A stretch of 64,000 nt of DNA from Candidatus Rifleibacterium amylolyticum (GTDB lineage Bacteria; Muiribacteriota; Ozemobacteria; Ozemobacterales; Ozemobacteraceae), in assembly GCA_009917695.1 (NCBI GenBank), contig JAACJG010000004.1:211321-275320 (forward strand), written 5' to 3'. Under the pieces are notes generated by a model that did not search any database, was not told the origin of the DNA, and saw only the letters and a list, made by a program, of their open reading frames with translations. The position numbers and the translations under genes are program-made. Position 1 is the first letter of the stretch; each line of letters opens with the position of its first letter. Below are positions 9,659-64,000 of the stretch, in pieces.

Positions 9659-9670
9659 TCAGGAGGCTGA

Positions 9671-10027
9671 TTGGATAACAAGAATTTTACCCTCAACTTC
9701 AAGAGCTCGGGCAAAATCACGATAGTTGAGTTCAGTGGTTATCTTGCGGCCGGAGTCACCGAGGCTCTGGTGCCGAAGGTTGAGGCTCTTCTTGTCGAAG
9801 GCTGCCGGAATTTTCTGTTCGATTTTTCAGGTGTGACAATGCTTGAGAGCGCAGCAGTTGCCGGTATTCTGGCGACAACTGAAAAAATAGTTGATGACCG
9901 TCAGGGCTATCTCGCCTTCTGTAATCTCAATGATGTTTCGCTGCGGGTTCTTGAGATGGTTGGCGTTTTTCTCTATGCCGGCTGTTTTGATACACCCGAA
10001 CAGGCCATTGCCGAAATGACAGAATAA
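9671..10027 (+). CDS. STAS-domain protein (anti-sigma-factor antagonist, SpoIIAA-like)
   Basis: A TTG start lies just after AGGAGG. The protein is 118 aa with a STAS-like pattern (ITIVEFSGYL...GVTMLESAAVAGIL). It begins 12 nt after the AsmA-like stop. Confidence 0.65.
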   Translation: MDNKNFTLNFKSSGKITIVEFSGYLAAGVTEALVPKVEALLVEGCRNFLFDFSGVTMLESAAVAGILATTEKIVDDRQGYLAFCNLNDVSLRVLEMVGVFLYAGCFDTPEQAIAEMTE

Positions 10028-10251
10028 ATCGGAGCGAAAGTCGCTTAGATTGCGATGTATTCAGAGAGCTTCGGTGTCTGAAAATCGCGCTTAATTTTAG
10101 GCAGACCGCTGCTGAATTTTTGCTTATATTTGCCAGCGCTCTCCGAAAACCCTCTTTATTAAAGACTTTTTGTTGTGGTACGCGTTTTGCGTAAGTTAAA
10201 TGCGTTCTGATTTTATTATTTATTATTATTCAATGCGGAGGGAGCGACTGT

Positions 10252-49623: not shown

Positions 49624-49817
49624 TTCGCTCTTCCTTTATCAAACTACATTAATTATAACATCTGCCATAAGCAAGATCAATTCAGTAAAACGGTGCAGTC
49701 TGCAAAAATCACGCAGAAATATTTTCCCCAAATCGTTTTTCAGCTGATTAACATATGGAGTGTCAATGGCAACACCGCTTGCCCGCTCCAGAATGCCGAA
49801 TTTTGAAGGAAGAATAT

Positions 49818-50846
49818 ATGACAGGAACTTATATTGGCCAGGATGTCGAGCCAAAGATCTACTCGATACTCAATGACTTTGCCTTTCAGTGGATATTCGG
49901 GCGCGAGGGCAACGAAAAGCTTACCATCAGTCTGCTGAACGCGATTCTGCGATTCGAAGACGACCGGCGCATCGAAGAGTTGCACTATCTCAACCCGTTC
50001 AACATGCGGCGCTTCAGAAGAGACAAGCTGACGGTTGTAGATGTTAAGGCCCGCGACTGCCGGGGGCGCTGGTATAACATCGAGGCCCAGGCCTGCGAAC
50101 ATGAGGCTTATATTGCCAGAACCGCATATTATGTGGCTAAGCTCTATTCGAGTCAGATCTTCGCCGGCGACAATTGCACCGCTTTGAACTCGGCGACGAG
50201 TATTTCGATCATGAACTTCGACCTGTTCGAAAACTCTGATCAGGTTCACGAAATATTCGAACTGCGCAATCGTAACGGCCAGCTGGTTCTTGATAACAGC
50301 ATGTCGCTGCATTATATAGACCTGACCAAATTCAACCGTGACAAGCCGCGTTCTCTGCGCACGCCATTTGAAAAGTGGCTCGATCTGATGAAATTTTCTC
50401 ACATTTACGGTAAAATAGGAGTAGAGATACCGCCATATCTCGACGAGGAGGTTTACGCCATGGCAATCGCCCAGCACCGACAACTCAATGCCAACGAAAA
50501 AATGCGTCGCCGCATGGAAGAGCGCGAGCGCTGCGAACTTGATATAGCTCTAATCCGCGGTGCCGCCTACGATAAAGGCGTTGCTCGCGGCCACTCTCTC
50601 GGCAAAACAGAAGGTCTGATAGAAGGCCTGGCAAAAGGCAAAATAGAAGGCAAAGCAGAAGGCAGGGGAGAAGGAGCTGCTGGCGTTATCAAAACTGTTC
50701 TTGTTTCGCGCTTTGGGGAAGTGCCCGCCGAACTTCTTGCGCGCATCGATGAGGTCAGCGTCCTTGCAGCTTTGCAGCAACTGGCGGCTGCAGCAGCCAC
50801 CGCCAACAGTCTCGACGACTTCGCAGCTCACCTGCCTCCGGTTTGA
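49818..50846 (+). CDS. Rpn-family (YhgA-like) PD-(D/E)XK recombination-promoting nuclease / putative transposase
   Basis: An N-terminal nuclease core (ILNDFAFQWIFGREGNEKLTISLLNAIL...DVKARDCRGRWYNIEAQ) and a C-terminal repetitive tail (GKTEGLIEGLAKGKIEGKAEGRGEG). The ATG at 49818 follows GAAGGAAG. Confidence 0.75.
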   Translation: MTGTYIGQDVEPKIYSILNDFAFQWIFGREGNEKLTISLLNAILRFEDDRRIEELHYLNPFNMRRFRRDKLTVVDVKARDCRGRWYNIEAQACEHEAYIARTAYYVAKLYSSQIFAGDNCTALNSATSISIMNFDLFENSDQVHEIFELRNRNGQLVLDNSMSLHYIDLTKFNRDKPRSLRTPFEKWLDLMKFSHIYGKIGVEIPPYLDEEVYAMAIAQHRQLNANEKMRRRMEERERCELDIALIRGAAYDKGVARGHSLGKTEGLIEGLAKGKIEGKAEGRGEGAAGVIKTVLVSRFGEVPAELLARIDEVSVLAALQQLAAAAATANSLDDFAAHLPPV

Positions 50847-50990
50847 GCTGAAAAGACAAACCGCCGATGCGACAATTTCGCACAATAATGCCGGAAGATT
50901 TCACGCAGAGCTGCTGAGACATAGAGGCGCAAGTTTACTGCCCGTCACTGGTCGGATCGTTCGCGAGTCATAGGAAGTAACGATTTTGCA

Positions 50991-51443
50991 CTATTGTGGC
51001 TTTGGACTGATCAGTTTGTATTTCTGTAGAGATTCGCCGGGAGTCATTATCGGGATTGGAAAATTTTTCTGCACTTCAGGGTTCAGGATATGTTTGCGGT
51101 CGAGTGAGATCAGAATATCGGCTTTGCCCTTTATGGCGCCGGCCAGAACGTGGGTATCCTTAGCATGTGTAAATTTTTGCCACGTTTCATTTTCCTGGCT
51201 GTTAGGGCTATCTACCAGAAGCAGCGGGAGCGGTTCGAGTGTTTTGAAAAACCATTGCCAGAGAGCATGGCCGAGAAGGTCGATGATATTGCTCTGCGCT
51301 TCGTTAAGGATTTTGGCAGTTGCCAGCAGTAGAATTTTCTTTTCAGCAGCTACTGCGAGCAGGCGCGCACTGCCGCCGGCTGGAGAGTTTGCGGCGGTTA
51401 CCAGAATGCAGGCATCCAGAAACAGTCTGGGCTTTTCCTTCAT
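50991..51443 (-). CDS. PIN-domain protein (VapC-like toxin)
   Basis: LFLDACILVTAANSP... fits the PIN fold acidic-residue pattern. Translation is coupled (ATGA) to the upstream ribbon-helix-helix gene. Confidence 0.6.
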   Translation of the reverse strand: MKEKPRLFLDACILVTAANSPAGGSARLLAVAAEKKILLLATAKILNEAQSNIIDLLGHALWQWFFKTLEPLPLLLVDSPNSQENETWQKFTHAKDTHVLAGAIKGKADILISLDRKHILNPEVQKNFPIPIMTPGESLQKYKLISPKPQ

Positions 51444-51688
51444 ATCTGATCTTCGCGAGTGAATTCATCAAGCTGTTTTTTCGTATAACGCCGCAGTTTT
51501 TCGGAACTCTCTGCCGTTAGCAGCAGCTGGTATGCTTCGGCAAATGAGGTCTCTCTGACGCCTTTCTGTCGGGTGATTATCTGAATAGCTTTCATAAGCA
51601 GTTCAGACATGCTGATTCCTGTCGTTGCCGACAAGATCTTGAGTTCCCGGTGAGTTTCTTCAGACAGGCGCAGGGTAAGCGTTTTCAT
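51440..51688 (-). CDS. Ribbon-helix-helix (CopG-like) antitoxin paired with the PIN protein
   Basis: MKTLTLRLSEETHRELKILSATTGISMSELLMKAI is an RHH signature. The ATG at 51688 follows GGAGGTCACC. Confidence 0.55.
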   Translation of the reverse strand: MKTLTLRLSEETHRELKILSATTGISMSELLMKAIQIITRQKGVRETSFAEAYQLLLTAESSEKLRRYTKKQLDEFTREDQI

Positions 51689-51775
51689 GGTGACCTCCAG
51701 ACCAAAACAATTCTCTAATATAAGTATAGCATGATTGATAAAACATTCAATCATGCAAATTATCAGACACAAAAT

Positions 51776-51912
51776 CGGCGTCAGGATCGTGCTGAAACGC
51801 CAGCGTAGGCGGAGATTCGCGCAATCAGCGGTTTGATTATTCGGAGAGGCTGAATGTCAATGAAGAGACTTAACTACCGCCAGCAATGAAGTAAGGTGTC
51901 CCCCGAACCCAA
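51776..51912. repeat. Repeat-A copy 1, about 140 bp (...GGATCGYGC..AGCGTAGGCGG..GAGATTCGCGCAATC..GCGG..TTATTCGG...GGTGTCCCCCGAAC)
   Basis: Aligns at roughly 80% identity with 53524-53657; partial copy at 53031-53118. Confidence 0.55.
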
Positions 51913-52090
51913 TTTGCGCGCCATTTCTGCGGCGCAAATGTATAAGGCCATCCATGGCCAAAAAGCCGCAGCTCTGAGGTTAATCTCACTGTTCGACAAC
52001 GATTTCAGCACTTATTGCCAGGATACAGGCTTTGCATTATACTGAACCATACTGAATTTTGTTGTGAAATGCGCATAGCGAGGTATTTCA

Positions 52091-53032
52091 ATGCAACCGG
52101 CTATTTATCTCAATCCCTTTACCGACTTTGGCTTCAAAAAGCTGTTTGGCGAAGAATACAACAAAGATCTGCTGATCGACTTCCTCAACCAGCTTCTCAA
52201 AAAAGAGCAGGGCCGTATCAAAACTCTGACTTACCTCAAAAACGAGCACCTCGGCCGCTCCGAAGCCGATCGCCGCGCCGTTTACGACCTTTACTGCGAG
52301 AATGAACAGGGCGAGAAATTTATCGTTGAGATACAGAAGTCAAAACAGAAGTTCTTCAAGGATCGCGCACTTTATTATTCGACTTTTCCGATCGCAGAGC
52401 AGGGAAAGGTCGGCGATTGGGATTTCGAGCTGAAAGCTGTCTATACCGTTGCGATTCTTGACTTTGTCTTCGACGAAGACAGATGCGATGCTGAGAAGTA
52501 TCGTTACGACGTCAAACTCACCGATATCGAAACTTACAAGGTTTTCTACGACAAGCTGACTTTTGTATACCTTGAAATGCCCAAATTCGAGAAAACTCTC
52601 GAAGAACTCGAAACTCGCTTTGACAAATGGCTCTATGTACTGAAAAACCTTGAGCGCCTGCACGATATCCCCGAAAAGCTCAAGGATCGTATCTTCAGAA
52701 AACTGTTCGCCGCCGCCGAAATAGCCAAATTCACTCCTGAAGAGGCCAGAGCCTACGAAGACAGCCTGAAGGTTTACCGTGACCTCAAGAATTCAATCGA
52801 CACTGCCCGCGAAGAAGGCCGTGAAGAAGGTCGCGAAGAAGGTATTGCACAAGTTGCGAAAAATCTGCTGCGAATGGGTCAGTCTATTGTAGACGTGAGC
52901 AAAGCAACTGGTTTATCACTCGAAGCCCTCGATAAAATACAGGCTTCAGATGGCAACAGCGTAAAAGAACCCGCCGCACCCTACAAAACCACCAGAAAGC
53001 CCAAAAAACCGTCAGTCCGTTTTAAAAAGTAA
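52091..53032 (+). CDS. Rpn-family (YhgA-like) PD-(D/E)XK nuclease / putative transposase, second divergent copy
   Basis: MQPAIYLNPFTDFGFKKLFGEEYNKDLLIDFLNQLL...DLYCENEQGEKFIVEIQ with a C-terminal REEGREEGREEG repeat. Confidence 0.75.
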   Translation: MQPAIYLNPFTDFGFKKLFGEEYNKDLLIDFLNQLLKKEQGRIKTLTYLKNEHLGRSEADRRAVYDLYCENEQGEKFIVEIQKSKQKFFKDRALYYSTFPIAEQGKVGDWDFELKAVYTVAILDFVFDEDRCDAEKYRYDVKLTDIETYKVFYDKLTFVYLEMPKFEKTLEELETRFDKWLYVLKNLERLHDIPEKLKDRIFRKLFAAAEIAKFTPEEARAYEDSLKVYRDLKNSIDTAREEGREEGREEGIAQVAKNLLRMGQSIVDVSKATGLSLEALDKIQASDGNSVKEPAAPYKTTRKPKKPSVRFKK

Positions 53033-53118
53033 TCTGCGGTTGCTGTTATTCGGGGGGGCTGAATGTTCTGAAGAGATCTAACTGCTGCCAGCATTTAGTA
53101 AGGTGTCCCCCCGAGCCC
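53031..53118. repeat. Repeat-A copy 2 (3' portion) immediately after the second rpn gene
   Basis: AATCTGCGGTTGCTGTTATTCGGGGGGGCTGAATGTTCTGAAGAGATCTAACTGC...GGTGTCCCCCCGAGCCC. Confidence 0.55.
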
Positions 53119-53148
53119 AGATGTCAGATTCTGTAACCTGTTACTTTT

Positions 53149-53370
53149 TCAGGCTACGAGTCTGGCGTTTGCAATCTCTTTTGGGCCAATGACCCTTAGT
53201 TGCGAAGCTTTAAGCGTTAAAACCGCCAGAGTTTCGCCTGACAGTGTCGTGAATTCAACCTCATAACCTTTGCCGGCATGTTCAAGAACTTCTGCGCCGA
53301 TATCTCCTGCCAACAGGCCATGCTCGGGCAGATCTACGGCCAGAGCAACTATATCCAGCTCTTTGATCAT
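53149..53370 (-). CDS. DUF4926-like small protein
   Basis: MIKELDIVALAVDLPEHGLLAGDIGAEVLEHAGKGYEVEFTT... matches the DUF4926 pattern. The ATG at 53370 is 8 nt after AAGGAG. Confidence 0.5.
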   Translation of the reverse strand: MIKELDIVALAVDLPEHGLLAGDIGAEVLEHAGKGYEVEFTTLSGETLAVLTLKASQLRVIGPKEIANARLVA

Positions 53371-53523
53371 CTTTTCAGCTCCTTGAGGATGGGTAAAGGA
53401 TATGCGGTTACCAGTCTGGGTGTTTGTTCGCCGTGTTCGATAAACCATATCGCTTTTACTAATGGCTTTCTAATACTTGCTTTCTGCCGCTTCACTGAAA
53501 ATAAAAAAGACTCGTTAACAATC

Positions 53524-53657
53524 TGCGCCAGGATCGCGCCGAAGAGGCAACGTAGGCGGGAGAGATTCGCGCAATCCGCGGTTGCTGTTATTCGGGGGGC
53601 TGAATGTTCTGAAGAGATTCAACTGCCTTCAGTGATTAAGTAAGATGTCCCCCGAAC
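53524..53657. repeat. Repeat-A copy 3
   Basis: CCAGGATCGCGCCGAAGAGGCAACGTAGGCGGGAGAGATTCGCGCAATCCGCGGTTGCTGTTATTCGGGGGGCTGAATGTTCTGAAGAGATTCAACTGCCTTCAG...GATGTCCCCCGAACCCC. Confidence 0.55.
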
Positions 53658-53979
53658 CCCAGGCGACTCACCGACACTCGGCCATCCATGGCCTTCGGTC
53701 GCGGCGCACGAAATCCGGGCTGCGCCTTTGATACTCACCCATCCATGGCCTTCGCGGGGAGGTTCTGCCGATGAAGCAGTCTCATCGTTAACTGGACAGT
53801 TGCGTTTAGAACAGTGTTTTTGATCTGAAATCGTTGGCGAAATCTGCGTCAATTAGCACAATCAAGGGTTTGCAGCCGTTGTCGGCATTTTCATTGCCGC
53901 AAATACAATATTTGTAATATAGGTGCAGCTGGTTATTTGTCTGAAACTATTAGAAAAAGCTATGCTTTGCGCATTTCTA

Positions 53980-54675
53980 TCAGCGTGATTTGATAACAGT
54001 TGCCTGAGTGGCGATACATTGAACGCCTTCGCCATCAAGTATATTGTTAGGATCATTTGCTGAAATTGTGTCACTGCCTGTTTGAAAAGCCGGATTCCCA
54101 GCGAAGTCCATTGCAAGCGTAACTGTCATATCGTAACTTGAAGTTGCCGCACTGGTAAATGTGTTGGGCGGATTATTGGAAAAAATAAAATCTGCGGGGG
54201 TAAGCGTTGTTACATCTGAGACTAAGGGTCGAGTGAGGCGCAAAATAAGATTATCGCCGGTATCGACAACCAGTGAGCGGTTGGCGTCTTCCCAGAATGC
54301 TCTCGATATGGCTAGAGGAGGTCGAAAATAGACCACTACCTCGTCACCGGTGTTGTGAATGCGGTCTGGTCCAAATGAATAACAGGTAGATGATGCTGGT
54401 GATATGGCGTATGGCCTGCCCCAAGGATCGGCTGTCGCTTTGTTCATGTAGGGGCCAACCAGACCCGATGTGTCGGTTTTATCATATGGTCTGCTCTGAT
54501 CAGTTTCGAAGCGGATCAATGCGTTTCTGATCTCATCGAGATCCTGCTTGGCTCTAGAATTTCTAGAATCTTCAACATATTGCTGAACGTAAGGCAATAC
54601 AGCACCAGCGAGTATGGCAATAATGGTAATGACGATCAGCAGTTCGATCAGTGTGAAACCATTTTTATTCATCAT
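53980..54675 (-). CDS. GspG-like pseudopilin with a C-terminal extension (paralog 1 of the array)
   Basis: MMNKNGFTLIELLIVITIIAILAGAVLPYV...DPWGRPYAISPASSTCYSFGPDRIHNTGDEV is the GspG signature (G|FTLIEL, DPWGxPY, GPD). About 95 extra C-terminal residues end in GVQCIATQATVIKSR. Confidence 0.75.
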   Translation of the reverse strand: MMNKNGFTLIELLIVITIIAILAGAVLPYVQQYVEDSRNSRAKQDLDEIRNALIRFETDQSRPYDKTDTSGLVGPYMNKATADPWGRPYAISPASSTCYSFGPDRIHNTGDEVVVYFRPPLAISRAFWEDANRSLVVDTGDNLILRLTRPLVSDVTTLTPADFIFSNNPPNTFTSAATSSYDMTVTLAMDFAGNPAFQTGSDTISANDPNNILDGEGVQCIATQATVIKSR

Positions 54676-54733
54676 TATTCAGTCCTAAAAACATTTCTGA
54701 CGGTATTGCTACCGTCAGAAATGTTTGCTAAGT

Positions 54734-55513
54734 TTACAGTGCCTTAATTACAACAGGGTTTAATTTTGATTTATTGCCAAGCGGCGCGTCGGTTGGTGCT
54801 TCGACGGCGTTATATGGTAGTGATACTGCTTGGTCTACCGCATTAGTAGATGTTTCCAATACTCTGATAGTATCGCGTCCAGGAGTGAAGGTGGCTACGC
54901 CGAAATCAGTTACTGTCCAGATGCATTCGCGAAAATCAGTGCCTGCGACTGACGTGAAAGTAAGTGTGGAAGGCGCACCATTCGTATCGACCACAAACTC
55001 CGCTCCAGTCAATGTTGTTGGATCAGTCAGTTCTCTGGTGAAACGAACCTTCATAAGGTCGCCGGATGAAACCGAGCCATCTTTATTGGCGTCGATATAT
55101 GTTACCCTTGATAATGCCATTGGTGCGCGAAAATCTACTGCGATATCATCTGCGGTTCCCGCTATCGTTCCTGTATTTGCCTGTGGGGTGTAGTCCGTAG
55201 CGCGGTCGGGACCATATGAAAATACAACAGAGGCTGATGCGCAGATCTTATAAGGTGTACCCCACGGGTCTGCAAGAGTTTTGCTCAGGTATGGGCCGAC
55301 GAGATTCGTAAGATCTTGTTCTGTCCAGAGCTTACCTGTGTCGAGTTCATAACGCAGAAGAGCGTTCTTGATTTCATCCAGATCGGCTCGAACCTTAGAT
55401 ACACGCGCATCTTCAACGTAGTCAGAGACATACGGGATGGCGGCGCCCGCGAGGATCGCGATGATCGTGATAACGATCAACAGTTCAATGAGTGTAAAAC
55501 CTTTTCTTAGCAT
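54734..55513 (-). CDS. GspG-like pseudopilin with a C-terminal extension (paralog 2)
   Basis: The ATG at 55513 (MLRKGFTLIELLIVITIIA) is 7 nt after GGAGGG. DPWGTPYKICASASVVFSYGPDRATD is present. The C-terminal domain lacks the CI(A/G)SQ ending. Confidence 0.7.
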   Translation of the reverse strand: MLRKGFTLIELLIVITIIAILAGAAIPYVSDYVEDARVSKVRADLDEIKNALLRYELDTGKLWTEQDLTNLVGPYLSKTLADPWGTPYKICASASVVFSYGPDRATDYTPQANTGTIAGTADDIAVDFRAPMALSRVTYIDANKDGSVSSGDLMKVRFTRELTDPTTLTGAEFVVDTNGAPSTLTFTSVAGTDFRECIWTVTDFGVATFTPGRDTIRVLETSTNAVDQAVSLPYNAVEAPTDAPLGNKSKLNPVVIKAL

Positions 55514-55671
55514 GTTGATGCCCTCCTGAAAATTTTGATTCCCAAACTTATAGAACCAGATCAACTTATGCAGGATAAACCGCCTGCCCGGACTAATACC
55601 CTTACAATATATAAAGATTTCTTTTTTATTTTCAACCCCGAATAAATATTAGCAATAACCGTACCACTTAA

Positions 55672-56391
55672 TCACTGCGGCAGAATTCTAACCGCCTGGC
55701 TGCCGATACATAGATTCCCTGCCATATCTGCAAGTGTAGCATGGGTGTAATCAATTTCAATACTGTCAGAGCCAGGCACGAATGCATTGTCTACCAGTAC
55801 GCTGTATACAAGTGTCCGGCTGGCAACCATTTTGAGGGAAGTCTCTTCGAACAGGCCAGAGAATAATGTGCTGGTGCCATTTACGACAAAATACCCGTCT
55901 ATAGCGTTATTATTCAAATCTGCTTCAAGATTGATTAGCTTTCTGCTGAAAGTCAGCTGAATAGTGTCAGAAGCATTTTGTGTATCAACTGCACCAGACT
56001 GGTTCCGGTCAACCCACTTGGCACTGACAAGCGCCAGCGGTGGTTGATATGGACCTTGTATGTTGTCTTCCGTGGTGGTTGTGTCTCGGTCTGGACCTCC
56101 TGATATAACTAAACCAGAATCCGTTGCAATGAGATATGGTCTTCCCCAGGGGTCTATAGGAGCTTTGTTGAGATAGCGTCCGGTCAGATCAGTTACATCG
56201 CCTTTGACATATTCGCCTTCGCGAGTTTCGTATACTGCAAGAGCGCGTGCAATTTCCTCAAGGTCCGTTTTTGCTTTTGCAATACGCGATTCCTCAACGT
56301 AATTTTGAACGTATGGAAGGGCAGCGCCGGCAAGAACGGCAAGAATTGTGATTACAACCAGCAGTTCGATAAGAGTGAAGCCTTTTTTCAT
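55672..56391 (-). CDS. GspG-like pseudopilin with a C-terminal extension (paralog 3). About 96% aa identical to paralog 4.
   Basis: MKKGFTLIELLVVITILAVLAGAALPYV...DPWGRPYLIATDSGLVISGGPDRD...NLCIGSQAVRILPQ; AAGGAG RBS. Confidence 0.8.
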   Translation of the reverse strand: MKKGFTLIELLVVITILAVLAGAALPYVQNYVEESRIAKAKTDLEEIARALAVYETREGEYVKGDVTDLTGRYLNKAPIDPWGRPYLIATDSGLVISGGPDRDTTTTEDNIQGPYQPPLALVSAKWVDRNQSGAVDTQNASDTIQLTFSRKLINLEADLNNNAIDGYFVVNGTSTLFSGLFEETSLKMVASRTLVYSVLVDNAFVPGSDSIEIDYTHATLADMAGNLCIGSQAVRILPQ

Positions 56392-56406
56392 ACTTTCTCC
56401 TTGAGG

Positions 56407-57126
56407 CTATTGTGGCAAAATCACAACAGGCTGACTGGCGATACAGAGATTGTTTGCCATATCGGCTAAGGTTGCGTGTGTGTAGTCTATTTCAATACTG
56501 TCAGAGCCAGGCACGAAAGCGTTGTCGACCAGTACATTGTAAACCAACGTCCTGCTGGCAACTATTTTGAGGGAAGTATCTTCGAACAGGCCGGAAAATA
56601 GTGTGCTTGTGCCATTTACGACAAAATATCCGTCAATGGCGTTATTATTCAAATCAACCTCGAGATTGCTGAGTTTTCTACTGAACGTAAGCTGAATAGT
56701 GTCAGAAGCATTTTGTGTATCAACAGCACCTGACTGGTTGCGATCTACCCACTTTGCACTGACAAGAGCCAATGGCGGCTGATAAGGTCCCTGGATGTTA
56801 TCTTCTGTGGTTGCCGTATCGCGGTCTGGCCCGCCCGAAATTACCAACCCCGAATCTGTAGCTATGAGATAGGGTCTTCCCCATGGGTCAATGGGAGCTT
56901 TATTAAGATAGCGGCCGGTCAGGTCTGTTACATCACCTTTGACGTATTCGCCTTCCCGTGTTTCGTATACAGCCAGAGCGCGAGCTATTTCTTCGAGGTC
57001 TGTTTTTGCCTTAGCAATGCGCGATTCCTCAACGTAATTCTGGACATACGGCAGTGCCGCCCCAGCTAGAACTGCTAGGATAGTGATTACAACAAGAAGT
57101 TCTATAAGTGTGAAACCTTTTTTCAT
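56407..57126 (-). CDS. GspG-like pseudopilin with a C-terminal extension (paralog 4, near-duplicate of paralog 3)
   Basis: Same length (239 aa) and about 10 substitutions relative to paralog 3; ends NLCIASQPVVILPQ. Confidence 0.8.
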   Translation of the reverse strand: MKKGFTLIELLVVITILAVLAGAALPYVQNYVEESRIAKAKTDLEEIARALAVYETREGEYVKGDVTDLTGRYLNKAPIDPWGRPYLIATDSGLVISGGPDRDTATTEDNIQGPYQPPLALVSAKWVDRNQSGAVDTQNASDTIQLTFSRKLSNLEVDLNNNAIDGYFVVNGTSTLFSGLFEDTSLKIVASRTLVYNVLVDNAFVPGSDSIEIDYTHATLADMANNLCIASQPVVILPQ

Positions 57127-57140
57127 AACATACCTCTCTA

Positions 57141-57863
57141 TTACTGGGGAAGGATGAGAACTGGCTGGCTACCTATGCATTGATTGCCGGCGGCGTCCAG
57201 TAGTGTGGTGTGATTAGATTTGATCTGTACGCTGTCTGAACCAGGGACAAAGGCGTTATCCAGCAGAACATTATATACTACAGTTTTGCTTGCTACAATC
57301 TTTGCGCTGGTCTCTTCAAATAGTGTTGCGAAGGCTGTTGTAGTGCCGAGCATGCTGAAGTAATTGTTTGCGCTGGAATCAAAAAGACCCTGTGTCGATG
57401 GCGCGAGTATGCGGCTGAATGTTAACTGGATAGCGTCGCTGGCATTTTGAATGTCTACCGCGCCAGACTGGTTTCTATCAACCCATTTGGCACTTACTAA
57501 GGCGAGAGGCGGCTGGTAAGGAACCTGTATGTTGTCTTCAGTGGATGTGACCAATCGGTCTGGGCCACCAGAAATGACAAGACCCGAATCAGTGGCGATC
57601 GTATATGGACGACCCCAGGGATCAATGGGAGCTTTGTTGAGGTAGCGGCCGGTGAGATCGGCAACCGTTCCTTTGGTGTAATCGCCTTCGCGAGTCTCGT
57701 AGACTGCAAGGGCGCGGGCGATTTCTTCGAGGTCGGTTTTGGCTTTGGCGATTCTTGATTCGGCGACGTAGTTCTGCACGTAGGGCAGAGCGGCGCCGGC
57801 CAGGATCGCCAGGATGGTGATGACCACCAGCAGTTCGATCAGTGTAAAGCCTCGTTTTATCAT
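57141..57863 (-). CDS. GspG-like pseudopilin with a C-terminal extension (paralog 5)
   Basis: The ATG at 57863 (MIKRGFTLIELL) is preceded by AAGGAG..GAGGAAG. DPWGRPYTIATDSGLVISGGPDR is present and the protein ends QCIGSQPVLILPQ. The ORF-track start at 57932 would overlap the upstream gene. Confidence 0.75.
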   Translation of the reverse strand: MIKRGFTLIELLVVITILAILAGAALPYVQNYVAESRIAKAKTDLEEIARALAVYETREGDYTKGTVADLTGRYLNKAPIDPWGRPYTIATDSGLVISGGPDRLVTSTEDNIQVPYQPPLALVSAKWVDRNQSGAVDIQNASDAIQLTFSRILAPSTQGLFDSSANNYFSMLGTTTAFATLFEETSAKIVASKTVVYNVLLDNAFVPGSDSVQIKSNHTTLLDAAGNQCIGSQPVLILPQ

Positions 57864-57889
57864 AACTTCCTCAATCTCCTTCGGATATA

Positions 57890-58627
57890 TTACCTTGCTG
57901 ATATAATAGTCATCGGCTGGCTGGCAATGCACTTGTTGCCGGTGCCGGAAGCCAGGTCGAGAATGCCATCGCCGTTGTCCACCCAGAAAGTGTCACTACC
58001 GGGGCCGAATACATCTTTTGCGCCGGTTGCGACAGGAATAATAATCAAATTACCGGAACTGTCAAGTTTCAATTCTGTCCAAGCTACTGCCGTGGCAATA
58101 TCATACTGACTCGACCAGCCAAAAAAGGTGTGGGCGTTGGCCAGATCATCTACAGCGTCACTGTTGGAGGCTATTTTGCGAGAAAAATACAATTGCAGAT
58201 AGTCGGGAATATTTTGCGTATCGACTGCTCCTGACTGATTGGCGTCGACCCATTTTACGCTGACAAGTGCCAGTGGCGGCTGGTAATTGGTGACTATATC
58301 GTCAGCGGTGAAATCAAGGCGGTCTGGGCCGGCTGAAAAAACGATGCCGGTGCCCGTTGCCACCACAAAGGGCTTGCCCCATGGGTCGATCGGTGAGGCG
58401 TTGAGATAACGCCCGGTCAGCAGGCTGACGTCTTCGGAATTATAGGCGCCTTCGCGAGTTTCGTAGATCGCCAGAGCTCTTCTGATTTCTTCAAGGTCAG
58501 ATTTGGCTTTGCTGATGCGGCTTTCCGCAACGTATCCCTGCACGTAGGGCAGGGCGGCGCCGACAAGGATGGCGATAATAGTTATCACCACCAGCAATTC
58601 AATCAGTGTAAAGCCCTTTTTACGCAT
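57890..58627 (-). CDS. GspG-like pseudopilin with a C-terminal extension (paralog 6)
   Basis: MRKKGFTLIELLVVITIIA...DPWGKPFVVATGTGIVFSAGPDR...KCIASQPMTIISAR; AAGGAAG RBS 9 nt upstream. Confidence 0.75.
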   Translation of the reverse strand: MRKKGFTLIELLVVITIIAILVGAALPYVQGYVAESRISKAKSDLEEIRRALAIYETREGAYNSEDVSLLTGRYLNASPIDPWGKPFVVATGTGIVFSAGPDRLDFTADDIVTNYQPPLALVSVKWVDANQSGAVDTQNIPDYLQLYFSRKIASNSDAVDDLANAHTFFGWSSQYDIATAVAWTELKLDSSGNLIIIPVATGAKDVFGPGSDTFWVDNGDGILDLASGTGNKCIASQPMTIISAR

Positions 58628-58929
58628 CTTTTTTAACTTCCTTGTTGTAAGCGCAGCTTCCTAATACTATTATCACAGTTTTTCAAAATCCTATAAAAAA
58701 TCTTTCGTTCAAGATAAATAAATATTTCTTTATTTTATTACGCAAAAGCCGTACCTGGTATTATTGGTGTCGAAGGGAAGCGTCGCAACACGCCCCTACG
58801 ATTCATGACAATGAAAACGGATTGGTGGAGGGGGGCAATGACATAGTAATCGCGAGGTTTTTTTGCCTCAATTGGGAAAATTTCCCTGTAAAAATAGATA
58901 AAGTTTTATTGTTCTGAGGAAATTTTGGC

Positions 58930-59727
58930 TCAGCGCTTTTTCTTTTCAATTATGACACCTTCCTGGCGCTGTAATGGCTGAGGTTTCGGCGAAAGATCCA
59001 CTATGCTTTCGATATATTCTCGTGGATATAGTCGGGTTTCGCCGGGTACCAGGGTTGGACCATCGGGAGGCGCGAATTCGATTTTCAGGTTGAATGGGGT
59101 GTCGCCGGCCTGTATTTTCGCTGAGCCCAGCGCTTTGACCGGGTTTGTCGTTTCAAAGTCAATCACGACAGGGTTGATCAGTTGCGCTGGCCGCGACAGT
59201 CGTACGTCGATGTAGTCGCCAAAGTCCAGCAGATTGTTGAGGTTGGTATCTACATGTTCTGCCCGTGTTATGAAGAATGCCGCCGGCATGTAAGATAAAA
59301 CGACGTCGTCAGTCCAGGTTGCAACAGTAGTAACCTGAGCAACTCCATCCGGTCCAGTGGAAAAAACTATGCCGGTATTGGCGTCATGCCGGTAATAGTT
59401 TCCCCAGGGGTCGCGTGGTGGTTCTTTCTCGAGATAGTTCCCGACGAAAGTGCCAAGCAGTTGCGGTGAAAAGGTAGCTATTTCAAAAGTTCGATTCTCT
59501 TTGATGTTGAACAGTCTTATCGATTTGATCAACTCTTCGATATCGGCTCGGGCCCGCCCGATGCGTGCTGCTTCGATATGCCGCGTGTATTCTTTGATTG
59601 CGAAGATCATCAACGTCGAAATGATCAGAAGCGAGACCAGCAGTTCTATCAGTGTGAAGCCGGCAGATCGGCTAGTTTCCGCTCTGCAACTATGTCTGCT
59701 GACTTTTATTGAGATTTCATCCATCAT
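58930..59727 (-). CDS. Pseudopilin-like protein with an unusually long (about 22 aa) leader before the G|FTLIELL cleavage site (paralog 7, divergent)
   Basis: MMDEISIKVSRHSCRAETSRSAG|FTLIELLVSLLIISTLMIFAIKEY...DPWGNYYRHDANTGIVFSTGPDG; weak RBS. Confidence 0.6.
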   Translation of the reverse strand: MMDEISIKVSRHSCRAETSRSAGFTLIELLVSLLIISTLMIFAIKEYTRHIEAARIGRARADIEELIKSIRLFNIKENRTFEIATFSPQLLGTFVGNYLEKEPPRDPWGNYYRHDANTGIVFSTGPDGVAQVTTVATWTDDVVLSYMPAAFFITRAEHVDTNLNNLLDFGDYIDVRLSRPAQLINPVVIDFETTNPVKALGSAKIQAGDTPFNLKIEFAPPDGPTLVPGETRLYPREYIESIVDLSPKPQPLQRQEGVIIEKKKR

Positions 59728-59815
59728 GCTGGTTATTCTCTAGATTGTATCACACTGCTTGTGAGATTGCTTCGTCGGCCTATGGCCTCCTCGCAATGAC
59801 ATTGAGCAGGCCTTG

Positions 59816-61729
59816 TCAGTTGCTGGCACTGTAGTATTCGCCTTCAGCCGTATCGTCAACGTTAACCAGTCGTGGAGTTACCAGCATGATCATCTCGCGC
59901 TCTTCTTCTGATGATTTGGTGTTGGTAAGCAGCGTGCGCAACATCGGAATCTTGTTGAGCAGGGCGGGAGAATTCTTGATATTGCGGTTGGTGTGACTGA
60001 TCAGACCGCCAAGCACGATTGTCTCGCCATCCTTGATGCGGACATAGGTCTTGGTCGATTTGGTAGCGAAGCGATACTGGCCGTCTTCGTTCGGTTCGCC
60101 ATCGATGTCGGTGATCTCGGTGACGAGGTCCAGGCTGATTTCATTGTCACGACTGATTTCGGGCGTGACGTTGAGTTCGATGCCGACTTCTACATCCTTG
60201 TAGCGCTTGAGCGACTGGGTGGTGGTAGTATAAACCGCGTAGGGACTTGAAGCGGTGGTTGCGTAATCGTAATATGGTACCGGAATAGTGCGGCCGATGA
60301 ATATGCGGGCCGGTTTTTTGTGGACGGCGCGAATCTTTGGACTGGCAAGCACTTTGGCACCTTCAGTTTCTTCAAGGAAGCTGAGGCGGGCGGGAAGGGC
60401 GTAGCTGGTCGGCAGTCGGCCGATGTCGGCAACGTCTATTGCATAGTTGGCTTTGCCGAGGCTGTCGACCTGCTTGATACCAAGATCTTTCAGGCTGCTG
60501 CGGTTGATTTCGACGAGCTTAACCTCGATGACCGCCTGTTTAACCTTCTCATCGATACTGTCGATGATTTTGGCAATCAAGTTGAGGTTTTCGGCGGTGT
60601 CATATACTGACAAGGTATTGATGCGTTCATTGATCGAGAAATTCTCGGTGTTAATTTTTTCACTGAGCGATTTGCTGCTTTTAATAAGGTTTGCTACCTC
60701 ATCTGGCGCGGCGTTGACCAGCTTGAACGTGCGGAACTGCTTGTTGCCAAAGTCGCTTGCGCTCTCGCGTGCCAAAATCACAAATGTGTTGTCATTGTGT
60801 GGTTTTTTCACAAGATCATTTGTTTGAATCAGAAGATCGAGCAGCTCATCGAGGTTGAGGTTCTCGACATAGAAGTTAACTTTTTTGTCTTCAACACTGT
60901 CATGAATGATCAGGTTGACATTCATCATCTTAGACAGCGTCTGTAGAGCATCTTTGAGGCTCAGGTCGCGGAACAACAGTTCACGGGCCATTCTGCTGCT
61001 GTCGGTACCGAGAGAGATGACAGTAAGATCTCTACCCTTGAGAGTATATTGGAAGTTTCTTTGAAGAAGAAGATTCTTGAGCACTTCGCGCAGTGTGACG
61101 TCCTGAGCATGTACACTGAACTTGCCAGTTACACCGGCATCAGCAAACACCCTGAGATTGAACTTTACAGCCAGAGCATTGAGGATCGTCATCAGGTCTT
61201 CCTGGTCGAAGCTCAGGCTGATGCGAGAATCGAGTGCGGTTTTCGATTCGTAATCAGTGGTGGCGCCAGTTATGCCGGCAGTGCTCTCACTGTATAGATG
61301 ACTGGTCTGCCCGCTCGGCCGGGCTGGGCGTATGGCTTCCAGAACCAGGCTTTTGCCGACACGCGCCGGTTTGATTCTGGTGGGTTCGTTAAGAACGATA
61401 ATGGCCCTGACCACGTCAGGGCTGCTGCTTACCTGGCTTATGCGCATAAATTTAACCAGCGGATGAGGAGCGGGGATGATAGTGCTGGTGCCGGAATATT
61501 CCCAGTCGTAATAATCGACCCGGATAACCTGTGGTGTTTCGACTTCGAAACCAAATTCTTTTGTCTCGTGGTCAGGAAACAGCACGATTGCGTTTGCTCC
61601 CTGTGTGCCGAGTCTGAGCTCAGAAAGTTTTTCCGAGGCAAAACCCGGCGTACATAAAGCTGTGACCAGCAGCAATACCAGCGCCATTTTTGCGCTGAAT
61701 GCAGCTGCGCGTGCAGTTTTAAACTTCAT
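59816..61729 (-). CDS. Secretin (GspD/PilQ family outer-membrane channel)
   Basis: The ATG at 61729 (MKFKTARAAAFSAKMALVLLLVTALCTPGFA, a signal peptide) is 6 nt after GAAGGAG; the ORF-track start is a TTG inside the RBS. There are N-domain repeats, and the C-terminal secretin domain is clear (GETIVLGGLISHTNRNIKNSPALLNKIPMLRTLL...IMLVTPRLV). Confidence 0.8.
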   Translation of the reverse strand: MKFKTARAAAFSAKMALVLLLVTALCTPGFASEKLSELRLGTQGANAIVLFPDHETKEFGFEVETPQVIRVDYYDWEYSGTSTIIPAPHPLVKFMRISQVSSSPDVVRAIIVLNEPTRIKPARVGKSLVLEAIRPARPSGQTSHLYSESTAGITGATTDYESKTALDSRISLSFDQEDLMTILNALAVKFNLRVFADAGVTGKFSVHAQDVTLREVLKNLLLQRNFQYTLKGRDLTVISLGTDSSRMARELLFRDLSLKDALQTLSKMMNVNLIIHDSVEDKKVNFYVENLNLDELLDLLIQTNDLVKKPHNDNTFVILARESASDFGNKQFRTFKLVNAAPDEVANLIKSSKSLSEKINTENFSINERINTLSVYDTAENLNLIAKIIDSIDEKVKQAVIEVKLVEINRSSLKDLGIKQVDSLGKANYAIDVADIGRLPTSYALPARLSFLEETEGAKVLASPKIRAVHKKPARIFIGRTIPVPYYDYATTASSPYAVYTTTTQSLKRYKDVEVGIELNVTPEISRDNEISLDLVTEITDIDGEPNEDGQYRFATKSTKTYVRIKDGETIVLGGLISHTNRNIKNSPALLNKIPMLRTLLTNTKSSEEEREMIMLVTPRLVNVDDTAEGEYYSASN

Positions 61730-61857
61730 AAACCGCTCCTTCAATTTATGCTTGATCAGGAAAGAACATCCCCACTATCAATGTCGGCACTTTGCATCGC
61801 AAAGTTTAGTTTCCTCTCAAAAATACATGAAAGATAAGAAGATTTCGCACAAAGACA

Positions 61858-62100
61858 CAAAGGCGCTAAGAAGAGAAGTCAGAAGAGTTATCCGCAGATT
61901 ACACCGATGGCACAGATTATTTTAGGGTAAGCAGGCCGTGGTTTGCCATGCTTGAGGCGCTAAGAGAGTTTGAGGTTCTTTGAGTTGGCAAAAGATCTCA
62001 CGCAGAGACGCTGCGGCGCGGAGAAGAAAAGTCAGAAGAGTTATCCGCAGATTACACAGATGGCACAGATTTTTTTTGAGAGTTAGCAGGCCTTAGTTTT
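61858..62100. repeat. Tandem direct repeat (two units of about 95 and 140 bp) in the secretin-gspF spacer, each containing GAAGAGTTATCCGCAGATTACACMGATGGCACAGATT
   Basis: Units begin at about 61863 and about 61957. A reverse-orientation partner, CAAATCTGCGGCTGGGG, lies at 62274-62290. Confidence 0.55.
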
Positions 62101-62162
62101 TGTTTGTTGTTCAGAGGGATCCTGTGACTTCGCGCAGTTACGGTAAAGATGAATGGAACAAT

Positions 62163-62199
62163 GTCATTCTGCGCGTAGCAACGCGAAGTCGCAGAATCC
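62163..62199. repeat. GTCATTCTGCGCG...GAAGTCGCAGAATCC palindromic REP-like element; a second copy of the GATCCTGYGACTTCGCGCAG..ACGGTAAAG direct repeat flanks it (62117 and 62221)
   Basis: About 90% identical to 47889-47925. Confidence 0.55.
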
Positions 62200-62336
62200 A
62201 TGCTTCTTGCCGCTCAATGAGATCCTGCGACTTCGCGCAGGATGACGGTAAAGGAGGTCTGCTTGAACTTGGCTGCAAATCTGCGGCTGGGGTTTTGGCT
62301 GCTTCTTTGTGGCTCTGAGGCTTTGCGCGCGTATTC

Positions 62337-63500
62337 TTACATCGCGCCGGGGAGGGCGCCGCCGGCAGTGGAACCACCGGTAACGACGCGGGCCATTCTG
62401 AAGATCGGCAGATACATGGCGAGAACGATGATGCCGACGATGACGCCGATTACCACAATGAAAGCCGGTTCGACCAGGGCGGTGATCTGGTCGATCAAAA
62501 AGTTGATTTCGTCTTCGTAGAACTCGGCGACTTTTTCGAGCATTTCGTCGAGATTACCTGATTCTTCACCGACTTCGATCATCTGTGTCGATAGTTCGGG
62601 CATGATATTGATCTTGGCAAGAGCGCGCGCAATCGGAATACCGCCCTCAACTTCCTTGACTACGTCCTGAAGTGAGTCGCGGATAATGTAGTTCTCAATC
62701 GCTTCATTACTGATTTTCATCGCAGTGATGATGTTGATGCCGGATTCAAAAAGAGTCGCGAGGTTGCGCGAATACAGTGCAACAATATATTTCTGCGAAA
62801 GGGTTCCGAACACGGGTATGCGCAGCCTGATCCAGTCGAAGGCATAGTGCCCGCGCGTGGTCTGGCCGATCTGATACATTACCACGACAAAAGCCAGTCC
62901 GGCCGCGAGAATGTTGAGTACGTTATTGCCGAGAAAGCTTGAGGTGTCAATGACGACCTGAGTTATCCAGGGCAGCTCCTGGCCGAACTGCTGAAACAGG
63001 TTGGCGAACTGCGGTATGACGAAAAGCATCAGAAACAGCACGACACCCAGAGCGACAAAAGATATGATCAGCGGGTAAGTCATGGCGCCGATGACGCGGC
63101 GGCGAATGGCTATCTGACGTTCAAGCAACGCGCTCAGACGTTCAAGAACGTTGTAGAGGCGGCCGGATTCTTCGCCGACCTTGATCAGATTCGAATAAAG
63201 CAGGCCAAAAATGTCTTCGTTGCGCTTAAAGCAGACGTGCAGCGGCATACCGCCTTCTACATCTACTTTGGTGTCCCAGATAACCTTGCGAAAGCGCCAG
63301 GTTTTCATCTGGCGCGACAGGGTGCCCATCGAGCGCAGAACCGAGATACCGGCTCGGGTCAGGGTGGCAAAATACTTGGTGAAAAGCAGCTTTTCGCCAA
63401 GACCGATATGACCATAAAAGGGGTTTACGTAAGAAATAATCGAACGGTTTTCGTCTCCTGGCCCTTCGACTCTTACTTCTTCGTTCTGGTTTTCTGCCAT
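62337..63500 (-). CDS. Type II secretion / type IV pilus inner-membrane platform protein (GspF/PilC family)
   Basis: The typical two-repeat GspF architecture with three TM segments; RBS GGGGGAG 8 nt upstream. Confidence 0.85.
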   Translation of the reverse strand: MAENQNEEVRVEGPGDENRSIISYVNPFYGHIGLGEKLLFTKYFATLTRAGISVLRSMGTLSRQMKTWRFRKVIWDTKVDVEGGMPLHVCFKRNEDIFGLLYSNLIKVGEESGRLYNVLERLSALLERQIAIRRRVIGAMTYPLIISFVALGVVLFLMLFVIPQFANLFQQFGQELPWITQVVIDTSSFLGNNVLNILAAGLAFVVVMYQIGQTTRGHYAFDWIRLRIPVFGTLSQKYIVALYSRNLATLFESGINIITAMKISNEAIENYIIRDSLQDVVKEVEGGIPIARALAKINIMPELSTQMIEVGEESGNLDEMLEKVAEFYEDEINFLIDQITALVEPAFIVVIGVIVGIIVLAMYLPIFRMARVVTGGSTAGGALPGAM

Positions 63501-63515
63501 AATACTAACTCCCCC

Positions 63516-63953
63516 TTACCAGCTCATCTCGGTATTGTAGTGCTTCATTCTGATGTTTTTGATCTGGCGCTTGTTGGTCGCCGGAACATAGTCAATGAGT
63601 TCAGTCAATGTCGCCTGAAAAACCGGGTAGTCATCAGATGGATATTCGATGTCATCAGCCACTTCTACCAGAATTTTGCCGTTTCCGGCCAGCGGTTCGA
63701 GCAGCAGAGAAGTGGGTGGTTGCTGGAGATAAGGCCCCTGTAAAGATTCAAGCGTTGTCGGGTAGGCCATGTGGTCTCTAAAATAGCGAGAAATTGCATC
63801 GCGAACTACCTTCAGGTTGGTTCTGGCGGTTGCGATACGGGCGTCTTCTATATAATCGCCATAATAATTCAAGCCGACCCCGGCGAGGACGGCTATAATC
63901 GCGACCACTATAAGTATTTCCATCAGTGTAAAACCTGATGTTCTGCGGCTCAT
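63516..63953 (-). CDS. Canonical-size (145 aa) pseudopilin/pilin with a prepilin-type N-terminal cleavage/methylation domain
   Basis: MSRRTSG|FTLMEILIVVAIIAVLAGVGLNYY; lies immediately upstream of the platform gene. Confidence 0.75.
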   Translation of the reverse strand: MSRRTSGFTLMEILIVVAIIAVLAGVGLNYYGDYIEDARIATARTNLKVVRDAISRYFRDHMAYPTTLESLQGPYLQQPPTSLLLEPLAGNGKILVEVADDIEYPSDDYPVFQATLTELIDYVPATNKRQIKNIRMKHYNTEMSW

Positions 63954-64000
63954 TGGCTATTCACTCATCTTTCCTGTTTCACCATCTCGATCGTGCGGGT

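Follow-up and report, generated by a model that had tools for sequence, protein, structure and literature searches.

The stretch of DNA analysed here, a window of 64,000 nucleotides from Candidatus Rifleibacterium amylolyticum (contig JAACJG010000004.1), ends in a locus where genes for a secretin and an inner-membrane platform protein precede a tandem array of seven prepilin genes, named G1 to G7. All genes of the locus lie on the minus strand. The first in the direction of transcription encodes a short prepilin of 145 aa (63516-63953; Pfam N_methyl 28 bits, T2SSG 19 bits and under its cut-off). It is followed by a platform protein of the GspF/PilC family (387 aa; 62337-63500; Pfam T2SSF in two stretches, 198 bits) and by a PilQ-like outer-membrane secretin of ~637 aa (59816-61729, within the open reading frame (ORF) 59816-61744; Secretin 124 bits, with STN and Secretin_N). 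The array then comprises G1 (265 aa; 58930-59727), G2 (245 aa; 57890-58627), G3 (240 aa; 57141-57863), G4 (239 aa; 56407-57126), G5 (55672-56391), G6 (259 aa; 54734-55513) and, as its last gene, G7 (231 aa; 53980-54675). A solitary ninth paralog, G9 (~283 aa; 30313-31164, minus strand), aligns with the arrayed proteins over both modules, N_methyl being its sole Pfam match. G4 is 100% identical to GQF41_1677 of the Candidatus Rifleibacterium amylolyticum metagenome-assembled genome (MAG), and GQF41_1675 is identical to G6. An earlier sequence-only reading of this DNA had listed a pilin, GspF, a secretin and seven GspG-type genes on the minus strand, and both the ORF listing and profile searches agree with that gene map.

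The prepilins are recognized by their processed N-terminus. In a six-frame translation of the 64 kb, the expression G-F-[ST]-L-[IM]-E-[LI]-L is found at exactly nine sites, with a chance expectation of ~0. All nine are N-termini of minus-strand ORFs, and the ninth is that of the paralog which the sequence-only reading had placed at 30313-31164. The nine proteins share G/F[TS]L[IM]E[LI]L and score 28-37 bits against N_methyl (cut-off 21.2). Each has the hallmarks of a type IV pilin, i.e., a short basic leader ending in glycine, F1, E5 and a hydrophobic alpha1-N of ~20 residues. P22 is present in G2-G7 and G9, and is replaced by lysine in G1 and by asparagine in the short pilin. G1-G7 all pass the Pfam thresholds for N_methyl and T2SSG. 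In fold and motif, including the DPWG.PY motif, the N-terminal (N) modules are closest to EpsG and PulG, the major pseudopilins of type II secretion systems (T2SS), while the scores against the GspG equivalog model TIGR01710 (38-61 bits) stay below its cut-off of 88.85. With 231-265 aa, compared to 134 for both the GspG model and PulG, the arrayed proteins are indeed some 100 aa longer than canonical GspG, as had been estimated from the sequence. The prepilin family is large, with 895 matches at E <= 1e-3 and several classes in each genome.

The additional length is a second, C-terminal (C) module of 115-156 aa, ~120 aa in the array, joined directly to the C-terminus of a complete GspG-like module. 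AlphaFold2, given 36 family members as input, models G4 (pLDDT 88.5, pTM 0.74) as a long alpha1 helix (residues 7-57), a small GspG-like beta-sheet head and a separate immunoglobulin (Ig)-like beta-sandwich (121-238). Searches with full proteins and isolated C modules against Pfam and NCBIfam yielded no Pfam family at E < 0.01. The traces seen were swm_rep_I (E 1.5e-3) and, at noise level, Mfa_like, Dockerin and EF-hand, and the gathering threshold of Big_5 (PF13205) was not reached by the pilin C modules. Likewise, Foldseek with the full G4 model against the PDB returned nothing at E <= 1e-3, just generic Ig folds. The identity of the module emerged from a profile of the eight C modules in the window, searched against 1.84 billion representative proteins. 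It matched 152 proteins, namely ~60 two-module pilins that are 230-290 aa long and, for the remainder, giant proteins that reach 6884 aa and contain the domain in tandem, in at most ~20 copies. Several of these giants also bear type IX secretion system sorting domains at their C-terminus, or domains of the Big_5, Big_9, cadherin-like or dockerin kinds. Since the stretches matched in the giants are those that Pfam calls Big_5, the C module is a Big_5/SbsA-type Ig-like domain in diverged form, a kind of domain that large cell-surface proteins contain as repeats. It also resembles the Ig domains of the S-layer protein SbsC (2RA1/4UJ6). Had the extensions been a known minor-pseudopilin or DUF1559-type domain, the sequence-only reading would have lapsed; no such match was obtained. 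DUF1559 (SBP_bac_10) did not match, and TIGR02596 and TIGR02599 gave 16-25 bits, against cut-offs of 70 and 256, over the N-terminus only. With its two-domain model and a C module that is also tandemly repeated in non-pilin giants, the protein has the features by which modular pilins are defined (PMC8179133). In G9 the C module is larger (156 aa) owing to two insertions. The G9 gene adjoins one for a 559-aa TPR protein (31365-33044); in some pilus systems, TPR lipoproteins serve as secretin pilotins.

A secretin scan, with one genome retained per species, identified 17 related loci with secretins 53-84% identical, all apparently from Riflebacteria. The gene order in most of them is rpoN, Poly_export, short pilin, GspF, secretin, G1, G2, two or three central copies, G6 and G7, with six to eight two-module pilins per locus. 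When 65 pilins of the window and its related loci are placed in a neighbour-joining tree, they fall into five orthologous clades: G1, G2, the central copies G3-G5, G6 and G7. By this tree, the seven arrayed genes are not equivalent but represent five orthologous classes kept across the phylum. The seven tandem paralogs of the sequence-only reading are thus a real array, now refined into five classes and split by two sigma54-type promoters (see below). G1, which has a 22-residue leader and starts 88 nt past the secretin gene, is retained where other array genes are missing, and its orthologue follows the secretin even in the distant loci L013, L014 and L018. Two distant rumen lineages have reduced arrays, with only G1 after the secretin in L013 and only GspF and secretin in L016. 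In L013, from a reindeer-rumen Riflebacteria MAG, three paralogous proteins of ~660 aa are encoded directly upstream of the secretin (3897-9836), in place of GspF and the short pilin. They combine CarboxypepD_reg, fn3 and a right-handed beta-helix, and may represent cargo or surface proteins associated with the secretin. Some related sequences (L011, L014, L015 and the protein P0096) carry the public labels Methylomirabilis, Avigastranaerophilus and Erysipelotrichia. Because synteny and sequence place them with Riflebacteria, they are probably mis-binned or mis-named Riflebacteria contigs.

Concerning the conduit, the secretin gene likelier starts at the ATG at 61729, which is preceded by a GAAGGAG Shine–Dalgarno sequence. 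Its product scores higher against the NCBIfam model of PilQ (170 bits, cut-off 284) than against that of GspD (132 bits, cut-off 351), both below cut-off. Its best solved relatives are all PilQ proteins (6w6m at 2.6e-25, 6ve2 and 3jc8; range 2.6e-25 to 9e-19), with GspD at 1e-16. Judged by these scores the secretin is nearer PilQ than GspD; an AMIN domain was not detected by Pfam. The platform protein cannot be assigned to either GspF or PilC by its NCBIfam scores (TIGR02120 GspF 314 bits, cut-off 424; PilC 300 bits), which are both under the equivalog cut-offs. The short pilin gene, which ends 15 nt before the platform gene, encodes a class III signal peptide and E5, with N22 replacing P22, and is 63% identical in protein sequence to its orthologue in L003, with a ratio of non-synonymous to synonymous divergence (dN/dS) of 0.31. 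The spacer between GspF and the secretin is long (592 bp; 61745-62336, minus strand) and holds two direct copies of a ~75-nt element, at 61888-61917 and 62041-62070, which start with ATCTGTGCCATC[G/T]GTGTAATCTGCGGATAACTCTTCTGACTT and have no further copies in the window. Because the length of this spacer varies from ~80 to 1280 bp across relatives, it looks like an insertion site of a small repeat resembling miniature inverted-repeat transposable elements (MITE) or repetitive extragenic palindromic (REP) sequences.

Upstream of the short pilin, the window breaks off within a Poly_export/CarboxypepD_reg-like gene, of which it contains the last 12 codons (63965-64000, minus strand), the remainder lying beyond the window end. 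A contig of 4.6 kb (L001) that is identical to the tail of the window extends it with the whole of this gene and with rpoN. The Poly_export gene (L001 1999-2850, its last 36 nt corresponding to 63965-64000) encodes 283 aa and scores 60.5 bits against Pfam Poly_export, and rpoN (L001 466-1920) lies upstream of it. The Poly_export gene occupies the same place in 11 related loci, frequently overlapping the short pilin gene, and rpoN is immediately upstream of it in most related loci whose contigs are long enough. No solved homologue of the Poly_export protein was found. A secretin and platform accompanied by an OPX-type protein is an unusual combination.

Several parts expected of a complete machine are missing from the locus. 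The Pfam scan, which covered window ORFs of >= 150 aa as well as the ORFs of the 50-54 kb stretch, detected no ATPase (including GspE of the T2SSE family), prepilin peptidase, GspC/L/M, PilMNO or GspH-K in the window. The Walker A motif G[PSAQ][TS]GSGK[STA][TS] was absent both from the window and from the 17 related loci with 10 kb flanks. Moreover, no GspC/L/M families were found in the window or the flanks of L003, and no PilB/PilT, PilM-N-O-P or PilD in the window or the flanks of related loci. The GspH/I/J models matched only the shared N-terminal 30-55 residues, under their cut-offs. The Pfam domains Secretin and T2SSF are clearly present at the locus, and all equivalog cut-offs are missed. 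The sequence-only reading had seen no ATPase, GspC/L/M or minor pseudopilin in the window, which these scans confirm. Its suggestion that some of them may lie upstream beyond the window fails, as L001 reveals the Poly_export gene and rpoN there and no ATPase. Nor does the locus lie inside a standard T2SS operon, the finding that would have spoken against its interpretation: the genes upstream in relatives are SIS, MutS2 (both further upstream of rpoN in L003), rpoN and Poly_export, and the downstream flank in the window contains PD-(D/E)XK and toxin-antitoxin genes. Because the Pfam scan is negative in the window and the Walker A scan in both the window and the 17 loci with their flanks, the locus is, as far as gene content tells, outside any complete T2SS operon, and a position just past the window edge does not account for the absent parts.

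The paralogs have evolved in a modular way. In every pair the N module is more alike than the C module (89% vs 68% for G3/G4, 71% vs 44% for G2/G3), and dN of the C module is ~3x that of the N module. G4 and G5 are 96% identical as proteins and 82% as DNA, with dN 0.028, dS 1.48 and omega 0.019. Of their nucleotide differences, 112/129 fall at third codon positions, corresponding to 108 synonymous and 10 non-synonymous codon differences, and for the N module alone dN is 0.004 and dS 2.6. Because the differences are mostly in third positions, with high dS and low dN, G4 and G5 are by this measure intact genes of long standing, subject to very strong purifying selection. The dS of 1.48 and the 112/129 third-position differences rule out both recent duplication and gene conversion as the source of the pair, and pseudogenes are ruled out by intact frames, dN/dS values of 0.02-0.16 and conserved orthologues.

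The classes evolve at very different rates. G2 is the most conserved (81% identity to L003, and 94% between L005 and L006), while G6 is the fastest-evolving orthologous class (46% identity to L003). The central copies cluster together within each genome in the neighbour-joining tree. Between the close genomes L005 and L006, G2 has dN 0.028 and dS 0.53, whereas the central copies are 67-70% identical, with dN 0.25-0.28 and dS 1.2-2.2, a divergence ~10x that of G2. Taken over the window, L003 (13716-16331) and other loci, central copies are only 60-70% identical between close genomes. In base composition too the genes differ, the GC content at third codon positions being 0.41-0.44 in G4-G7 compared to 0.53-0.64 in G1-G3 and the machinery genes. 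From these divergence patterns we infer, as the simplest explanation, that lineages have exchanged the central genes as one block and that these genes are hypervariable from strain to strain. Alternatives are concerted evolution at the protein level and selection for synonymous divergence between adjacent repeats. Hypervariability between strains is usual in the exposed major subunits of filaments.

The two gaps that flank the G2-G5 block carry conserved promoter-like sequences. A strict sigma54 motif, [TA]GG[CT]A[CT][GA]-N4-[TC]TGC, was scanned over 706,220 positions (353 kb of window and loci, both strands) and matched 20 times. Of these matches, 16 are on the operon strand in just two gaps, the G1-G2 spacer and the one after the last central copy and before G6. 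In the window, the -24/-12 motif in front of G2 is AGGTACGGCTTTTGC (58742-58756, minus strand; 129 nt upstream of the G2 ATG) and the one in front of G6 is TGGTACGGTTATTGC (55652-55666, minus strand; 5 nt past the G5 stop and 153 nt upstream of the G6 ATG). The former recurs in L003, L004, L005, L006 and L012 and the latter in L003-L007, L009-L011 and L015, while the flanking sequence is otherwise unconserved. When two mismatches are allowed, the window contains no excess of the looser pattern (84 matches against 75.7 expected), and a sigma70 consensus scan is uninformative (15 found, 12.3 expected). As far as motif scans go, the strict motif, taken together with its position and cross-genome conservation, is the sole informative evidence for sigma54. 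A terminator scan detected none after G7.

Just downstream of the -12 element before G2 lies a near-perfect, AT-rich palindrome of 20 bp, ATAAAGAAATATTTATTTAT (58714-58733, minus strand). It is the sole aligning block of the G1-G2 spacer, in 11/11 loci aligned, with sites at 13095-13112 in L005, 13070-13087 in L006, 13068-13085 in L008, 13138-13155 in L009, 13253-13270 in L010, 13262-13279 in L011 and 12889-12906 in L012. A degenerate copy with three mismatches, AAAAAGAAATCTTTATATAT (55607-55626, minus strand), is located downstream of the G6 promoter motif, where zero would be expected by chance. The palindrome could be an operator or a leader element. Because promoter motifs and palindromes precede both G2 and G6, the array appears to consist of three transcription units: one up to G1, one of G2-G5 and one of G6-G7. 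The last two would be under the control of sigma54 and of a palindrome-binding factor or leader element. Control by sigma54 is known for major pilin genes, for example pilA of Pseudomonas and Myxococcus. Besides those at the locus, the window holds two strict matches only: one at 10176-10190 (plus strand), 76 nt upstream of ORF 10252-11616, and one at 3472-3486 (minus strand), at the 5′ edge of ORF 2413-3492. These may be further sigma54 promoters.

Taken together, the locus would encode the conduit, the platform and, in its modular pilins, the subunits of a type IV filament specific to Riflebacteria, an interpretation to which we assign a probability of roughly 0.55. Most likely, such a filament displays Ig domains along its length as a surface fibre, and its function is probably adhesion. 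From the sequence features, fold, module homology, synteny, selection and promoter motifs we infer assembly, surface exposure, subunit roles and function as follows. The prepilins would be inserted in the inner membrane and their leaders cut after the glycine by a peptidase encoded elsewhere, upon which an unlinked ATPase would polymerise the subunits on the GspF platform. The alpha1 helices would pack as the core, with GspG-like heads and Ig modules coating the filament, and the fibre would exit through the PilQ-like secretin. The central copies G3-G5 would provide the bulk subunits, while G1, presumably co-transcribed with the secretin, as well as G2, G6, G7 and the short pilin would have special roles, for example in priming, at the tip or as subunits of low abundance. 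Adhesion to surfaces, polymers or other cells would be the task of the Ig modules on display, and swapping of the central cassette between strains would alter the exposed surface.

Several observations point in this direction. A pilus-like conduit is favoured over a T2SS-like one because the secretin scores better against PilQ than against GspD in both NCBIfam and PDB comparisons. All copies are functional, given the dN/dS of 0.019 for G4/G5, and exposure of the C modules is suggested by their lower conservation in each pair. The large size of the subunits is no bar to a filament, because major type IVa pilins reach up to 279 aa and the 208-aa PilA of M. xanthus forms a 7-nm pilus that fits its machine (PMC11046646). 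The sequence-only reading had already preferred a diversified fibre or adhesin module attached to one secretin over a textbook T2SS. It gains support from the PilQ-like secretin and from a C module of the Ig-like surface-protein kind that evolves ~3x faster than the N module, as well as from the hypervariability of the central copies between genomes.

A number of points weigh against the filament. An assembly ATPase, a prepilin peptidase, PilMNO/GspCLM and a priming complex of the GspHIJK/PilVWX type are all absent from the window and the 10-kb flanks of the relatives. We know of no filament body seen so far with an extra domain on every subunit, and the adhesive role is suggested by analogy with the Ig-like repeats of surface proteins only. 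The codon bias of G4-G7 is weak (effective number of codons 52-56), which gives no support for very high expression. A literature search on pili of Riflebacteria, Rifleibacterium and Ozemobacter and on extended GspG paralogs found nothing relevant. The pilin heads, being of the T2SS major-pseudopilin type with the DPWG.PY motif, would also suit a periplasmic endopilus. Finally, the modular pilins studied so far are minor, tip-located subunits (PMC8179133).

A bolder form of the same interpretation is more tentative, and we think it rather doubtful. It would make this a new type of type IV filament in which all body subunits are bimodular, an Ig-sheathed polymeric adhesin or filamentous S-layer-like surface with five conserved subunit classes, a major-subunit cassette that varies between strains, is exchanged horizontally and is controlled by sigma54 and the palindrome as operator, and a periplasmic OPX-type (Poly_export) protein as a novel accessory part of a machine based on a secretin.

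The endopilus mentioned above belongs to an unlikely alternative, a divergent T2SS. In it, GspG-like proteins would form a short periplasmic endopilus that drives folded substrates out by way of the secretin, with Ig modules that recruit or contact cargo and paralogs that differ in cargo specificity. Such a system would fit N modules that are nearest EpsG/PulG in fold and motif and a platform that scores slightly higher as GspF than as PilC, and the three ~660-aa proteins upstream of the secretin in L013 would be its possible cargo. T2SS genes can also be dispersed over up to five loci (PMC5553014). The alternative agrees less well with a secretin nearer PilQ than GspD, with the lack of GspC/L/M/E/O and GspH-K at the locus in the window and in the 17 relatives, and with the failure to reach any equivalog cut-off. 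Moreover, hypervariability between close genomes, with the quickest change in the appended module, is not what one would predict for the subunit of a periplasmic endopilus, and sigma54 control is typical of pilin genes and not of gsp operons.

Another improbable scenario dispenses with a filament altogether. The prepilin signal would then serve for insertion and processing only, and alpha1-anchored proteins or short stubs would display the Ig domains in the envelope. Parallels are the Sulfolobus bindosome, whose binding proteins have signal peptides of class III, and the large families of prepilin-like proteins in Planctomycetes, Verrucomicrobia and Elusimicrobia. The resemblance of the C module to the Ig domains of the S-layer protein SbsC, the large family with its several classes per genome, the solitary G9 far from any machinery and the ATPase not linked to the locus are all consistent with envelope display. 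It would leave unexplained why linkage to the secretin and platform is strictly conserved and why E5 and P22, both tied to filament assembly, are kept in G2-G7. The N-module dN of 0.004 between G4 and G5 fits a packing interface, and the proteins do not belong to a DUF1559 or Verru_Chthon cassette. Polysaccharide export, with the Poly_export (OPX-like) protein and secretin as exit and the pseudopilins as piston, an idea put forward for the pseudopilins of the cyanobacterial hormogonium polysaccharide (Hps), is very improbable: Poly_export is the conserved first gene of the cluster, overlapping the short pilin gene in several loci, and G1 has a weak N-terminal match to HpsC (E 0.008), but that match is far under cut-off and covers a generic prepilin N-terminus only, no glycosyltransferase, flippase or Wzy/Wzc-type gene is present in the locus or flanks, a model of the Poly_export protein could not draw on any solved homologue, and seven Ig-bearing subunits would go unexplained.

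The surroundings of the locus consist, elsewhere in the window, of housekeeping and unrelated genes (miaA, mutL, tsaD, tsaB, a helicase, TPR proteins, hemB, glycogen phosphorylase). Directly downstream of the array is a variable zone (49755-53448) with PD-(D/E)XK_2 'transposase'-family genes (49755-50846 and 52091-53032), a PIN toxin gene (50991-51443) and a DUF4926 gene (53149-53448). The small ORF upstream of the PIN toxin gene (51440-51772) probably encodes its antitoxin. In relatives, the counterpart of this zone contains more prepilin-like genes, at ~21.4 kb in L005, L006 and L015 and at ~17.7 kb in L009 and L012. Another ORF, of 682 aa and without Pfam match (33638-35686, minus strand), is situated in a stretch with a raised GC content of 0.58 and a GC skew of 0.135; its product has a short folded N-terminus and CxxC...CxxC, followed by ~500 residues of Pro/Ala-rich low complexity with repeated 'LPPMKP'. 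No Rfam family matched in 53400-64000 at E <= 1.

If the filament interpretation is right, the idea of modular pilins would extend from single tip adhesins to a whole filament body, and the system would probe how far type IV filaments and their secretins tolerate added bulk. It would also provide a defined, conserved and testable surface structure for the Riflebacteria, to our knowledge a candidate phylum without a cultured member, which are found in aquifers, bioreactors and the rumen. The hybrid make-up would be a data point on the divergence of T2SS and type IV pili, and the sigma54 promoter with its accompanying palindrome would offer experimenters a compact regulatory module. In case either the divergent T2SS or envelope display proves true, the locus would still be a new lineage-specific variant, of less general interest. 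What is new here is a locus conserved across the phylum whose six to eight arrayed pilins all have two modules, the hybrid of GspG fold and PilQ-like secretin with an unlinked ATPase and a Poly_export partner, and the combination of sigma54/palindrome regulation with the evolutionary pattern of the central copies. The bimodular protein architecture itself is that of the already described class of modular pilins (PMC8179133).

Compared to known systems, the locus shares with T2SS GspG (EpsG 4LW9, PulG 5WDA) the DPWG.PY motif, E5, P22 and a score above the Pfam T2SSG threshold. It differs by the extra Ig module of 115-156 aa, by seven copies in five classes instead of one, and by a PilQ-like secretin without a gspC-O operon. 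With type IVa pilus systems that have large pilins, such as that of Myxococcus xanthus, it has in common the PilQ-like secretin, the PilC-like platform, the sigma54-type promoter before pilin genes and an enlarged C-terminal pilin part that decorates the filament surface. In contrast to these systems, there are no pilB/pilT/pilM-P genes and no minor-pilin/PilY1 set at the locus. Here the enlargement is an autonomous Ig domain rather than an expanded head, and several classes occur in tandem. A GspG-like fold does not in itself point to a T2SS, for it is reportedly found in genuine pili as well, namely those of Thermus, whose type IV pilins are said to resemble pseudopilins. Arrays of adjacent paralogous subunits are also known from the archaellins flaB1-B3 and from multi-flagellin loci, where some copies are near-identical and others specialised, and where the assembly domain is conserved and exposed parts are variable. 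This is an organisational likeness only, as machinery and subunit folds differ. From the S-layer and giant adhesin-like proteins that contain Big_5/SbsA domains (PF13205), the pilins differ in having a single domain fused to a pilin, not a tandem series.

The closest relatives in architecture are the modular pilins, of which more than 1,200 in 264 architectures were catalogued by Raynaud et al. (2021), among them five GspG-domain pilins with FN3 and a single pilin with a pair of SbsA/Big_5 Ig domains (PMC8179133). In Streptococcus sanguinis, PilB combines a pilin with vWA and PilC a pilin with a lectin module (PMC8179133). Many more such proteins were expected, with modules that escape domain databases (PMC8179133). 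The Riflebacteria proteins likewise have an N-terminal class III pilin module, a short linker (PPLAL) and a module that is also found in non-pilin proteins; their C module is too diverged for detection by Pfam. However, known modular pilins are single, low-abundance proteins located at the tip, beside a classical major pilin, whereas here the two-module plan extends to each of the six to eight pilins in the array, also to the multi-copy class that is the likeliest bulk subunit.

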